DNA from: Escherichia phage Qbeta
Reading direction: 5' to 3' (one strand)
Sequence record: FJ483840.1
DNA: 4,218 nt
Positions 62-4,218 of this stretch are shown piece by piece (positions within the stretch are counted from its first letter, which is position 1; every line of letters starts with the position of its first letter). Below the pieces are notes generated by a model, which worked only from the letters and a program-made list of their open reading frames with translations, made no database searches and was not told where the DNA came from. Both the position numbers and the translations under genes were made by a program.

Positions 62-1324
62 ATGCCTAAATTACCACGTGGTCTGCGTTTCGGAGCCGAT
101 AATGAAATTCTTAATGATTTTCAGGAGCTCTGGTTTCCAGACCTCTTTATCGAATCTTCCGACACGCATCCGTGGTACACACTGAAAGGTCGTGTGTTGA
201 ACGCTCATCTTGATGATCGCCTACCTAATGTAGGTGGTCGCCAGGTCAGGCGTACTCCACATCGTGTTACTGTTCCGATTGCCTCTTCAGGCCTTCGTCC
301 GGTAACAACCGTTCAGTATGATCCCGCAGCACTATCGTTCTTATTGAACGCTCGTGTTGATTGGGATTTCGGTAATGGCGATAGTGCGAACCTTGTCATT
401 AATGACTTTTTGTTTCGCACTTCCGCACCTAAGGAGTTCGATTTCTCGAATTCTTTAGTTCCTCGTTATACTCAGGCCTTCTCCGCTTTTAATGCCAAGT
501 ATGGCACTATGATCGGCGAAGGGCTCGAGACTATAAAATATCTCGGGCTGTTACTGCGCAGACTGCGTGAGGGTTACCGCGCTGTTAAACGCGGCGATTT
601 ACGTGCTCTTCGCAGGGTTATCCAGTCTTACCATAATGGTAAGTGGAAGCCGACTACTGCTGGTAATCTCTGGCTTGAATTTCGTTATGGCCTTATGCCT
701 CTCTTCTATGACATCAAAGACGTCATGTTAGATTGGCAGAACCGTCATGATAAAATTCAACGCCTCCTTCGGTTTTCTGTCGGTCACGGTGAGGACTGCG
801 TTGTCGAATTCGACAACTTATATCCAGCCGTTGCTTACTTTAAACTGAAAGGTGAGATTACACTCGAACGCCGTCATCGTCATGGTATATCTTACGCTAA
901 TCGCGAAGGATATGCTGTTTTCGATAACGGTTCCCTTCGGCCTGTGTCCGATTGGAAGGAGCTTGCCACCGCATTCATCAATCCGCATGAAGTTGCTTGG
1001 GAGCTAACTCCCTACAGCTTCGTTGTTGATTGGTTCTTGAATGTCGGTGACATACTTGCTCAACAGGGTCAGCTATATCATAATATCGATATTGTAGACG
1101 GTTTTGACAGACGTGACATCCGGCTCAAATCCTTCACTATAAAAGGTGAACGAAATGGGCGGCCTGTTAACGTTTCTGCTGACCTGTCTGCTGTCGATTT
1201 ATTTTACAGCCGACTCCATACGAGCAGTCTTCCGTTCGCTACACTTGATCTCGATACTACCTTTAGTTCGTATAAACACGTCCTTGATAGTATCTTTTTA
1301 TTAACCCAACGCATTAAGCGTTGA
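62..1324 (+). CDS. A2: Maturation protein A2 (attachment protein; in Qβ also the lysis effector that inhibits MurA)
   Basis: ORF from the AUG at 62 to the TGA at 1322..1324 encodes 420 aa (MPKLPRGLRFGADNEILNDFQELWFPDLFIESSDTHPWYTLKGRV...). I recognise this as near-identical to Qβ A2. It is the first gene, as in all leviviruses. The six-frame track starts the ORF at an upstream in-frame AUG at 50 (MRGH extension); I favour 62 because the AGAGGA element at 53..58 sits immediately upstream of it. Confidence 0.93.
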   Translation: MPKLPRGLRFGADNEILNDFQELWFPDLFIESSDTHPWYTLKGRVLNAHLDDRLPNVGGRQVRRTPHRVTVPIASSGLRPVTTVQYDPAALSFLLNARVDWDFGNGDSANLVINDFLFRTSAPKEFDFSNSLVPRYTQAFSAFNAKYGTMIGEGLETIKYLGLLLRRLREGYRAVKRGDLRALRRVIQSYHNGKWKPTTAGNLWLEFRYGLMPLFYDIKDVMLDWQNRHDKIQRLLRFSVGHGEDCVVEFDNLYPAVAYFKLKGEITLERRHRHGISYANREGYAVFDNGSLRPVSDWKELATAFINPHEVAWELTPYSFVVDWFLNVGDILAQQGQLYHNIDIVDGFDRRDIRLKSFTIKGERNGRPVNVSADLSAVDLFYSRLHTSSLPFATLDLDTTFSSYKHVLDSIFLLTQRIKR

Positions 1325-1344: not shown

Positions 1345-1746
1345 ATGGCAAAATTAGAGACTGTTACTTTAAGTAACATCGGGAAAGATGGACAACAAAC
1401 TCTGGTCCTCAACCCGCGTGGGGTAAATCCCACTAACGGTGTTGCCGCGCTTTCACAAGCGGGTGCAGTTCCTGCACTGGAGAAGCGTGTTACCGTTTCG
1501 GTATCCCAGCCTTCTCGCAATCGCAAGAACTACAAGGTCCAGGTTAAGATCCAGAACCCGACCGCTTGCACTGCAAACGGTTCTTGTGACCCATCCGTTA
1601 CTCGCCAGGCATATGCTGACGTGACTTTCTCGTTCACGCAGTATAGTACCGATGAGGAACGAGCTTTTGTTCGTACAGAGCTTATCGCTCTGCTCGCTAG
1701 TCCTCTGCTGATCGATGCTATTGATCAGCTGAATCCAGCGTATTGA
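1345..1746 (+). CDS. cp: Major coat (capsid) protein
   Basis: AUG at 1345 to the TGA at 1744..1746 encodes 133 aa (MAKLETVTLSNIGKDGQQTLVLNPRGVNPTNGVAALSQAGAVPALEKRVTVSVSQPSRNRKNYKVQVKIQNPTACTANGSCDPSVTRQAYADVTFSFTQYSTDEERAFVRTELIALLASPLLIDAIDQLNPAY). This is recognisably the Qβ coat protein, including the two Cys residues (CTANGSC) that form inter-subunit disulfides in Qβ. The track ORF starts at 1321 because it counts a TTG; the real start is the AUG at 1345. Confidence 0.96.
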   Translation: MAKLETVTLSNIGKDGQQTLVLNPRGVNPTNGVAALSQAGAVPALEKRVTVSVSQPSRNRKNYKVQVKIQNPTACTANGSCDPSVTRQAYADVTFSFTQYSTDEERAFVRTELIALLASPLLIDAIDQLNPAY

Positions 1747-2334
1747 ACACTGCTCATTGCCGGTGGTGGCTCAGGGTCAAACCCCGATTCGGTTATCCCG
1801 GATCCACCGATTGATCCGCCGCCAGGGACAGGCAAGTATACCTGTCCCTTCGCAATTTGGTCCCTAGAGGAGGTTTACGAGCCTCCTACTAGGAACCGAC
1901 CGTGGCCTATCTACAATGCTGTCGAACTCCGGCCTCGCAAGTTTGATGTTGCCCTCGAAGATCTTTTGGGCAATACAAATTGGCGCGACTGGGATTCACG
2001 GCTGAGTTATACCACGTTCCGCGGTTGCCGTGGCAATGGTTATATTGACCTCGATGCGACTTATCTTGCTACTGATCAGGCTATGCGTGATCAGAAGTAC
2101 GATATTCGCGAGGGCAAAAAACCTGGTGCTTTCGGTAACATTGAGCGATTCATTTATCTTAAGTCGATAAATGCTTATTGCTCTCTTAGCGATATTGCGG
2201 CCTATCACGCCGATGGTGTGATAGTTGGCTTTTGGCGCGATCCATCTAGTGGTGGTGCCATACCGTTTGACTTCACTAAGTTTGATAAGACTAAATGTCC
2301 TATTCAAGCCGTGATAGTCGTTCCTCGTGCTTAG
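1345..2334 (+). CDS. A1: A1 read-through protein (minor capsid protein; coat extended by about 196 aa through suppression of the coat UGA)
   Basis: The frame stays open after the coat UGA (1744..1746) from 1747 to a TAG at 2332..2334, which is followed immediately by an in-frame TAA at 2335..2337. The extension reads TLLIAGGGSGSNPDSVIPDPPIDPPPGTGKYTCPFAIWSLEEVYEPP...KCPIQAVIVVPRA, which I recognise as the Qβ A1 read-through domain. Total length is 329 aa if UGA is decoded as Trp. Confidence 0.9.
1744..1746 (+). other. Leaky UGA stop codon (programmed translational read-through site separating coat from the A1 extension)
   Basis: UGA in the context UAU-UGA-ACA-CUG, followed by about 585 nt of open in-frame sequence. 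In Qβ this UGA is misread by tRNA-Trp at a few percent frequency. Confidence 0.88.
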
Positions 2335-2348
2335 TAACTAAGGATGAA

Positions 2349-2368
2349 ATGCATGTCTAAGACAGCAT
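2349..2368 (+). promoter_or_regulatory. Coat-protein translational operator hairpin containing the replicase initiation codon
   Basis: AUGCAUGUC-UAA-GACAGCAU forms an 8-bp stem (2349..2357 paired with 2361..2368) with a bulged A at 2353 and a 3-nt UAA loop. The replicase AUG (2353..2355) lies in the 5' arm. This matches the known Qβ operator that coat-protein dimers bind to repress replicase translation. Confidence 0.88.
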
Positions 2369-4122
2369 CTTCGCATAACTCTCTTAGCGCACAATTGCGC
2401 CGAGCTGCGAACACAAGAATTGAGGTAGAAGGTAACCTCGCACTTTCCATTGCCAACGATTTACTATTGGCTTATGGTCAATCGCCATTTAACTCTGAAG
2501 CTGAGTGTATTTCACTCAGTCCGAGATTCGACGGGACCCCGGATGACTTTAGGATAAATTATCTTAAAGCCGAGGTCATGTCGAAGTATGACGATTTCAG
2601 CCTAGGTATTGATACCGAAGCTGCTGCCTGGGAAAAGTTCCTGGCAGCAGAGGCTGAATGTGCTTTAACGAACGCTCGTCTCTATAGGCCTGACTACAGT
2701 GAGGATTTCAATTTCTCACTGGGCGAGTCATGTATTCACATGGCTCGTAGAAAAATAGCCAAGTTAATAGGAGACGCTCCGTCCGTTGAGGGTATGTTGC
2801 GTCACTGCCGTTTTTCCGGTGGTGCCACAACAACGAATAACCGTTCGTACGGTCATCCGTCCTTCAAGTTTGCGCTTCCACAAGCGTGTACGCCTCGGGC
2901 TTTGAAATATGTTTTAGCTCTTAGAGCTTCTACACATTTCGATATCAGAATTTCTGATATTAGCCCTTTTAATAAAGCAGTTACTGTACCTAAGAACAGT
3001 AAAACCGATCGTTGTATTGCTATCGAGCCTGGCTGGAATATGTTTTTTCAACTAGGCATCGGTGGCATTCTACGCGATCGGTTGCGTTGCTGGGGTATCG
3101 ATCTGAATGATCAGACGATAAATCAGCGCCGCGCTCACGAAGGCTCCGTTACTAATAATTTAGCAACGGTTGATCTCTCAGCGGCAAGCGATTCTATATC
3201 TCTTGCTCTCTGTGAGCTCTTACTGCCCCCAGGCTGGTTTGAGGTCCTTATGGACCTCAGATCACCTAAAGGGCGGTTGCCTGACGGTAGTGTTGTTACC
3301 TATGAGAAGATTTCCTCTATGGGTAACGGATACACATTCGAGCTTGAGTCGCTTATCTTTGCTTCTCTTGCTCGTTCCGTTTGTGAGATACTGGACTTAG
3401 ACTCATCTGAGGTCACTGTCTACGGAGACGATATTATCTTACCGTCCTGTGCAGTCCCTGCCCTTCGGGAAGTCTTTAAGTATGTTGGTTTTACAACCAA
3501 TACTAAAAAGACTTTTTCCGAGGGGCCGTTCAGAGAGTCGTGCGGTAAGCACTACTATTCTGGCGTAGATGTTACTCCCTTCTACATACGTCACCGTATA
3601 GTGACCCCTGCCGATTTAATACTGGTTTTGAATAACCTATATCGGTGGGCCACGATTGATGGCGTATGGGATCCTAGGGCCCATCCCGTGTACCTCAAGT
3701 ATCGTAAGTTGCTGCCTAAACAGCTGCAACGTAATACTATACCTGATGGTTACGGTGATGGGGCCCTCGTCGGATCGGTCCTGATCAATCCTTTCGCGAA
3801 AAACCGCGGGTGGATCCGGTACGTACCGGTGATCACGGACCATACAAGGGACCGAGAGCGCGCTGAGTTAGGGTCGTATCTTTACGACCTCTTCTCGCGT
3901 TGTCTCCCGGAAAGTAACGATGGGTTGCCTCTAAGGGGTCCGTCGAGTTGCGATTCTGTAAATCTGTCTGCTGTCGATCAACTTATCTGTAGGAGCAATC
4001 CTACAAAGATAAGTAGATCTACTGGCAAGTTCGATATACAGTATATCGCGTGCAGTAGCCGTGTTCTGGCACCCTACGGGGTCTTCCAGGGCACGAAGGT
4101 TACATCTCTACACGAGGTGTAA
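2353..4122 (+). CDS. rep: RNA-directed RNA polymerase, replicase beta subunit (catalytic subunit)
   Basis: AUG at 2353 to the TAA at 4120..4122 encodes 589 aa (MSKTASSHNSLSAQLRRAANTRIEVEGNLALSIANDLLLAYGQ...). The canonical RdRp catalytic motif YGDD is at 3421..3432 (VTVYGDDIILPS). An AAGGA Shine-Dalgarno-like element lies at 2340..2344. I recognise the protein as the Qβ replicase. The track ORF starts at an in-frame AUG at 2344 (MKC-) that overlaps the SD; 2353 is the accepted start. Confidence 0.95.
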   Translation: MSKTASSHNSLSAQLRRAANTRIEVEGNLALSIANDLLLAYGQSPFNSEAECISLSPRFDGTPDDFRINYLKAEVMSKYDDFSLGIDTEAAAWEKFLAAEAECALTNARLYRPDYSEDFNFSLGESCIHMARRKIAKLIGDAPSVEGMLRHCRFSGGATTTNNRSYGHPSFKFALPQACTPRALKYVLALRASTHFDIRISDISPFNKAVTVPKNSKTDRCIAIEPGWNMFFQLGIGGILRDRLRCWGIDLNDQTINQRRAHEGSVTNNLATVDLSAASDSISLALCELLLPPGWFEVLMDLRSPKGRLPDGSVVTYEKISSMGNGYTFELESLIFASLARSVCEILDLDSSEVTVYGDDIILPSCAVPALREVFKYVGFTTNTKKTFSEGPFRESCGKHYYSGVDVTPFYIRHRIVTPADLILVLNNLYRWATIDGVWDPRAHPVYLKYRKLLPKQLQRNTIPDGYGDGALVGSVLINPFAKNRGWIRYVPVITDHTRDRERAELGSYLYDLFSRCLPESNDGLPLRGPSSCDSVNLSAVDQLICRSNPTKISRSTGKFDIQYIACSSRVLAPYGVFQGTKVTSLHEV

Positions 4123-4218
4123 CCTGGGAGGGCGCCAATATGGCGCCTAATTGTGAATAAATTATCACAATTACTCTTACGAGTGAGAGAGGGATCTGCT
4201 TTGCCCTCTCTCCTCCCA
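4123..4218 (+). promoter_or_regulatory. 3' untranslated region with three stem-loops and terminal CCCA (replicase recognition and initiation region)
   Basis: Hairpin 1: GGCGCC (4131..4136) / GGCGCC (4142..4147), loop AAUAU. Hairpin 2: UAAUUGUGA (4148..4156) / UCACAAUUA (4165..4173), 8-nt A/U-rich loop. Hairpin 3: GAGAGAGGG (4185..4193) / CCCUCUCUC (4204..4212), 10-nt loop AUCUGCUUUG. The genome ends ...CUCCCA-3', the hallmark 3' terminus of Qβ-type phage RNA. Confidence 0.85.

Follow-up and report, generated by a model that had tools for sequence, protein, structure and literature searches.

The replicase-start hairpin of Qβ-type phage genome FJ483840.1 is an unchanged copy of the known Qβ coat-protein operator

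Introduction

The operator of phage Qβ is widely used as a tethering or packaging tag, both for Qβ virus-like particles and in fusion tools built on the Qβ coat protein. The MS2 operator has a 4-nucleotide (nt) loop and, in its 7-bp stem, a bulged A that binding requires; the AUG lies on the 3' side of the hairpin. In the Qβ operator, by comparison, the loop has 3 nt, the stem has 8 bp, and the bulged A is the A of the AUG itself on the 5' arm; this bulge is reported to be dispensable for binding. The two systems are alike in outline, in that a coat dimer of MS2/R17 (Emesvirus), as of Qβ, uses adenine pockets in its β-sheet to bind a small hairpin at the replicase start and represses translation, and each of the two stems carries one unpaired purine (PMC3561173, PMC12724129). 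Wild-type MS2 coat protein nevertheless discriminates against the Qβ hairpin (PMC12724129).

Citing Lim 1996 and Rumnieks & Tars 2014, PMC12724129 lists the requirements of the Qβ operator as a three-nucleotide loop, an eight-base-pair stem, and an adenine as the last loop base. With the A of the replicase AUG numbered +1, the same paper places A+8 in a pocket of Ser, Gln, and Lys and stacks A+1 and A+7 on the two monomers' Tyr. PMC11724954 cites PDB 4L8H for the stacking of the bulged A on Y89 of the coat protein. An in-cell selection for Qβ coat-protein binders yielded a UAA loop, a C-G closing pair, and a 4-bp upper stem (PMC11724954). In the cryo-EM model of the virion, the operator is stem-loop 34 (Qβ nucleotides 2351 to 2364), bound to a C/C coat dimer (PMC8880383). 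Repression of replicase translation by the coat protein is stated for Qβ in several sources (PMC2978339, PMC3561173, PMC7467689), and translation through the coat gene is described as opening the replicase initiation site (PMC2978339).

Here, we compare the replicase start of sequence record FJ483840.1 with these systems. By "the window" we mean the whole stretch of DNA that was analyzed, 4,218 nt in length. The hairpin at the replicase start of this genome is an unchanged copy of the well-characterized Qβ operator and, as such, an element that is already known. The regulatory switch in this strain is intact and identical to that of the reference; the value of the analysis lies in confirmation, and it raises no new question.

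Results

FJ483840.1 is the complete genome of a Qβ-type (Qubevirus durum) single-stranded RNA phage. Its best full-length match in the phage collection that we searched is Qβ strain HL4-9 (FJ483841), with 95.8% identity. The reference Qβ genome, AB971354, is 95.6% identical over its full length, and M11 and MX1 are about 75% identical. On the basis of the full-length identity to Qβ strains, we place the window as a complete genome of a Qubevirus durum (Qβ) lineage that the collection itself lacks. Judged by sequence, it is a distinct Qβ lineage that has diverged by about 4% from the records in the collection searched. The segment from 2200 to 3000 is closest to the isolates FrHibiscus and FrBurgundy (98%), and the whole-genome identity to those two is about 95%; this uneven closeness may hint at mosaicism or at uneven divergence. 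A scan of the whole window against 4,227 Rfam models (E <= 1) gave no match anywhere, an absence that is uninformative since Rfam holds no family for the operator element and thus no curated model to score against. The coordinates of the features discussed below are collected in Table 1.

Table 1. Features of the replicase-start operator and of its genome context (window coordinates)
Feature	Position	Strand	Basis or remark
Operator hairpin, AUGCAUGUCUAAGACAGCAU	2349-2368	+	MFE fold; identical to published Qβ operator
Lower stem, 5' arm AUGC (-4 to -1)	2349-2352	+	Pairs with 2365-2368
Replicase (β-subunit) start codon AUG	2353-2355	+	Qβ CDS annotation; PDB β-subunit chains
Upper stem, 5' arm UGUC	2354-2357	+	Pairs with 2361-2364 (GACA); C2357-G2361 closes the loop
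Loop U+6 A+7 A+8	2358-2360	+	A+8 (2360) is the adenine entering the coat-protein pocket
Stem, 3' arm, GACAGCAU	2361-2368	+	Within replicase codons 3 to 6
Replicase Shine-Dalgarno UAAGGA	2339-2344	+	Read from sequence; 8 nt upstream of AUG, outside the hairpin
Maturation/A2 gene	62-1324		
Coat-protein gene (trans-acting repressor of the operator hairpin)	1345-1746	+	Matches PDB 4l8h, 1qbe
Read-through A1 gene	ends 2334		
Replicase β-subunit gene (regulated target)	2353-4122	+	ORF list; Qβ annotations; PDB Qβ replicase chains

The letters at 2349 to 2368, read directly from the window, are ATGCATGTCTAAGACAGCAT. Folded as RNA, they form the structure ((((.((((...)))))))) with an energy of -5.7 kcal/mol. 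The pairs are 2349-2368, 2350-2367, 2351-2366, 2352-2365, 2354-2364, 2355-2363, 2356-2362, and 2357-2361; all eight are Watson-Crick, and they make up a lower and an upper stem of 4 bp each. A2353 is unpaired in every fold, as a single bulge between the two stems, and the 3-nt loop U2358 A2359 A2360 likewise appears in all folds. Context was varied with nested windows of 100 to 800 nt and one fold of 1,451 nt. The hairpin is the minimum-free-energy (MFE) structure in contexts of 20, 36, 61, 100, 121, 200, 400, 800, and 1,451 nt; its pair probabilities are 0.82 to 1.0 in the 200- to 800-nt contexts and only about 0.5 to 0.6 in the 100-nt context. The MFE fold thus bears out the anatomy and coordinates given in a preliminary description of this DNA, namely, an 8-bp hairpin with a bulged A and a 3-nt loop at 2349 to 2368. 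That description had named the folding of 2330 to 2390 as a check for an alternative structure, and the hairpin remains the MFE structure in a 61-nt context as in all others tried.

The 20-mer is identical, letter for letter, to the Qβ RNA operator printed in PMC12724129. Comparison with the published operator was a further check proposed in the preliminary description, which had read the hairpin as the Qβ coat-protein operator; with an identical 20-mer in a window that is itself a Qβ strain, this reading holds. Stem-loop 34 of the virion model corresponds to window positions 2352 to 2365, inside the 20-mer. Relative to the Qβ operator as described (Witherell & Uhlenbeck 1989; Lim, Spingola & Peabody 1996; Rumnieks & Tars 2014; Chang et al. 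2022), the 20-nt sequence, the fold, the position on the replicase AUG, and the genome context are the same. There is no difference inside the element, and the differences that do exist are the divergence of the genome at large and one flanking base: within 10 nt, the flanks depart from Qβ only by a G-to-A change at 2375, which turns Arg8 of the replicase into His. The window hairpin unites the features of the Qβ type, that is, a 3-nt loop with A+8, an 8-bp stem closed by a C-G pair, A+1 as the bulged A, an AUG inside the hairpin, a cognate coat gene, and compensatory changes among relatives. It lacks those of the MS2 type (a 4-nt ANYA loop, a bulge two pairs below the loop, and an AUG on the 3' side); its loop has 3 nt, its bulge lies four pairs below the loop, and it carries the AUG on the 5' arm. 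Although the element functions in the manner of the MS2 operator, it does not belong to that type.

Which AUG starts the replicase? Three AUG triplets lie within 12 nt: one at 2344, which is in frame and adds the residues MKC; one at 2349, which is out of frame; and the real start at 2353. The list of open reading frames begins the gene at 2344, three codons early (MKC-MSK...), and we rejected this candidate because both the CDS annotation and the PDB chains begin at 2353. The replicase CDS of AB971354 is annotated from 2352, equivalent to window position 2353, and the β-subunit chains in the PDB start with MSKTASS, which aligns to residue 4 of the frame read from 2344. With the start at 2353, the bulged A is A+1 and the loop spans +6 to +8. 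The start codon then consists of the bulged A2353 together with U2354 and G2355, which are paired with A2364 and C2363, respectively. The Qβ annotation and the PDB chains therefore confirm the earlier placement of the replicase initiation site within the hairpin. The AUG at 2349 opens a mini-ORF, AUG-CAU-GUC-UAA, whose stop codon lies in the operator loop. Both upstream AUGs, at 2344 and 2349, are missing from M11, MX1, SP, NL95, and FI, which was a further ground for rejecting 2344; on that account, they seem incidental to the sequence of the Shine-Dalgarno and the lower stem.

The Shine-Dalgarno region lies outside the hairpin and has a predicted partner of its own. In folds of 1.4 kb, positions 2333 to 2346 are predicted to pair over long range with positions 1592 to 1602 of the coat gene. 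This partner, at +248 to +258 from the coat AUG, has the same coordinates in the folds of the window, Qβ, M11, and MX1. No pairing between the Shine-Dalgarno and the middle of the coat gene occurs in the MFE folds of SP, NL95, and FI, where the Shine-Dalgarno pairs locally with the end of the read-through gene instead. As predicted, the long-range pairing would be the Qβ counterpart of the translational coupling of coat and replicase, and it fits the statement that coat translation opens the replicase site (PMC2978339).

To what extent is the hairpin conserved? We extracted the replicase starts of ten relatives, and the resulting genus alignment comprises nine sequences, a small sample. In this alignment, 93% of the cells are paired compared to 81% in column shuffles, and none of 500 shuffles reached 93%. 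When the register was slid as a control, only 21 to 49% of the cells were paired. RNAalifold independently predicted the same structure from the alignment. Double compensatory changes occur in two pairs (6 cells). The two lowest pairs are swapped in SP, NL95, and FI, from A-U to U-A and from U-A to A-U, and the lower stem AUGC...GCAU becomes UAGC...GCUA or AAGC...GCUU. The noncoding positions -4 and -3 hence covary with the coding positions +16 and +15, the latter being the synonymous wobble base of codon 5. Such covariation of noncoding with wobble positions argues against a pure coding explanation. Two of the eight stem pairs covary and the remainder are invariant, and the 3' arm is constrained in addition by the conserved N-terminal peptide MSKT(A).

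Among the nine genus members, the upper stem (2354 to 2357 with 2361 to 2364) is nearly invariant, A+7 and A+8 are invariant, and position +6 is U or A. The operators of SP, NL95, FI, M11, and MX1 resemble that of the window in that the hairpin sits on the replicase AUG, its 3-nt loop ends in AA, the upper stem is UGUC/GACA, and the lower stem has 4 bp. SP, NL95, and FI often have an AAA loop, their two lowest pairs are swapped as described above, and coat residue 89 is Phe or Ser as opposed to the Tyr of the window. In M11 (2348 to 2369) and MX1 (2347 to 2368), A+1 is paired with U and a C is bulged on the 3' side, which gives a stem of 9 bp compared to 8 bp in the window. These two operators do without a 5' bulged A, so the detail of the bulge is not a genus-wide constant. 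The coats of M11 and MX1 keep Tyr89 without the 5' bulged A, and SP and FI (Phe89) and NL95 (Ser89) keep the bulged A. From the sequences, then, the bulge and the stacking residue 89 do not covary in the simple way that would be expected.

Within Qβ proper, the 20-mer is identical in all strains. Two laboratory isolates, QB_2 and QB_3 (GQ153929 and GQ153930), carry a change of A+1 to G at position 25 of their records, which gives a GUG start and a bulged G and keeps the fold; viable phage therefore tolerate a change at the bulged position. The fold is also kept in a third deposited laboratory variant, in which the U2350-A2367 pair becomes U·G. The old SP record X07489 has a C at +4 (2442 to 2457; AUGCCAAAG), which puts a C·A mismatch in place of the upper-stem pair between U+4 and A. 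FI-BR1 has U at +4 and is otherwise identical to X07489 in the operator region. The C in the SP record may be genuine to the strain or may stem from an error in sequencing.

The coat protein encoded in the window is identical to that of Qβ at 128 of 132 residues (97%) and matches PDB entries 4l8h, 1qbe, and 5kip with E values of 1e-75 to 1e-81. The four substitutions (G9S, K16Q, S34A, and A113I, mature numbering) affect neither Tyr89 nor any pocket residue. The adenine-pocket residues V32, T49, S51, Q65, and K67 are all present, as is Y89, and the five pocket residues do not vary across the genus.

We also asked how common a hairpin of this shape is. The isolated 20-mer has a z score of -2.41, with 7 of 200 shuffles folding as well, and in larger contexts the z score is only -1 to -1.4. 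When the window was scanned for hairpins of at least 8 bp with a 3-nt loop and no more than one bulge, 30 were found, compared to 15.3 ± 4.0 in dinucleotide shuffles, where hairpins of this shape cover about 7.6% of the sequence. Those with an NNA loop number 8 in the window and 3.6 ± 1.9 in the shuffles. Since similar hairpins are frequent in the window, shape alone proves little, and from this one sequence a hairpin over the start codon is only mildly unlikely. With single-sequence statistics this weak, it is conservation and identity to a characterized element that carry the case. The hairpins found by the scan on the plus strand include 2621-2650, 3235-3264, 522-549, 625-644, 1359-1380, 2198-2227, 3918-3945, and 4130-4148; the last six of these, among others, coincide with numbered operator-like stem-loops of Chang et al. 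2022 (PMC8880383).

Discussion

We are highly confident that the segment from 2349 to 2368 serves as the translational operator of the replicase gene in this Qβ-type RNA phage, a reading that takes the binding, the repression, and the contacts from the literature on Qβ itself. What the present data contribute to it is the fold, its position on the start codon, the conservation and covariation, the identity to the Qβ sequence, and an intact cognate coat protein. The plus-strand segment forms a small hairpin with the replicase AUG in its stem, and by analogy with Qβ, a coat dimer would bind this hairpin as coat protein accumulates. In the complex, A+8 of the loop would enter the pocket of V32, T49, S51, Q65, and K67, and Tyr89 of the two subunits would serve as the stacking partner of A+7 and the bulged A+1. 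Once bound, the dimer would block the 30S subunit from the AUG and the adjoining Shine-Dalgarno, and with the 30S subunit kept off the AUG, replicase synthesis would stop late in infection. The contact between operator and coat would persist in the virion as one among many coat-RNA contacts. The preliminary description had the coat protein shutting off replicase synthesis, and the literature on the identical Qβ sequence (PMC2978339, PMC3561173, PMC7467689) supports the view that it would do so here.

How much of this control could the RNA exert alone? The start codon had been called sequestered, which is correct insofar as the AUG lies in the stem but is overstated for the RNA by itself, given a stability of -5.7 kcal/mol, an A of the AUG that is bulged, and a Shine-Dalgarno outside the hairpin. 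A hairpin this weak, with the Shine-Dalgarno outside it, leaves the bound coat dimer as the source of the block. The same points weigh on the idea that the hairpin is a purely cis-acting, protein-free attenuator that occludes the AUG, possibly together with long-range masking of the Shine-Dalgarno by the coat gene. The location of the AUG within the stem, the predicted pairing of the Shine-Dalgarno with +248 to +258 of the coat gene in the window, Qβ, M11, and MX1, and the opening of the replicase initiation site by coat translation (PMC2978339) are all consistent with such an attenuator. However, with that stability and a bulge at the AUG, the hairpin lacks the strength to silence initiation by itself, and the invariance of A+7, A+8, and the C-G closing pair, superfluous for a structural block, is exactly as coat binding requires. 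We consider pure cis attenuation quite unlikely; most likely, a cis-attenuation layer coexists with repression by the coat protein and does not replace it. Packaging offers another reading, in which the hairpin is mainly the nucleation site, a single high-affinity assembly signal, and repression is secondary. In the virion, a coat dimer is indeed found on the operator (PMC8880383), and to this extent the earlier claim that the hairpin nucleates packaging has a basis. Yet the dimer that it binds is an ordinary C/C dimer, the operator is one among the Qβ virion's 33 operator-like stem-loops, almost half of these stem-loops are clustered in the genome's 5' half, and the start of a co-replicational assembly has been proposed at the 5' end (PMC8880383). 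Current models invoke many hairpins of moderate affinity and assembly at multiple sites (PMC8880383, PMC10610835, PMC7467689), and the roughly twofold excess of 3-nt-loop hairpins over shuffles fits dispersed signals of this kind. A role mainly in nucleation thus seems unlikely, and the part of the claim that makes this hairpin the nucleator is not established for Qβ.

Could the hairpin lack a function at the RNA level altogether, as a chance fold or as a by-product of coding for the conserved N terminus MSKTA? The abundance of the shape (30 in the window, compared to about 15 in shuffles, where it covers about 7.6% of the sequence), z scores of about -1 in larger contexts, and a coding 3' arm with a conserved MSKT would all be in keeping with this explanation. 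We rejected it because noncoding -4 and -3 covary with +16 and +15, the second of which is a synonymous wobble position. The structure-preserving variants among the deposited records and the solved complex of the same sequence with coat protein (PDB 4L8H) likewise speak against it, and we give it next to no credence. A further role on the other strand was also considered. The minus-strand complement of 2349 to 2368 forms an 8-bp hairpin of the same energy, -5.7 kcal/mol, with the 3-nt loop UUA, which ends in A; in Qβ-proper strains, binding of the coat protein could conceivably extend to the replicative minus strand, with effects on replication or on the selection of strands. In the relatives with an AAA loop (MX1, SP, NL95, and FI-BR1), the minus-strand loop is UUU, so the feature is not conserved, and we regard such a role as very improbable.

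Beyond the genus, a replicase search of IMG/VR brought up only distant relatives (about 40% identity), whose replicase starts carry hairpins of other types; these relatives are unusable for covariation of the Qβ operator. Two types recur among these distant Fiersviridae. In one, the 5' arm includes the Shine-Dalgarno sequence (AGGA), the loop has 3 nt, a one-base bulge lies on the 5' side, and the AUG is in the 3' arm (examples among contigs L011 to L090 are L018, L027, L032, L039, L051, and L066). In the other, the AUG is followed directly by a 5- to 6-bp hairpin with a UAAA loop (for example, L029, L034, L040, and L067).
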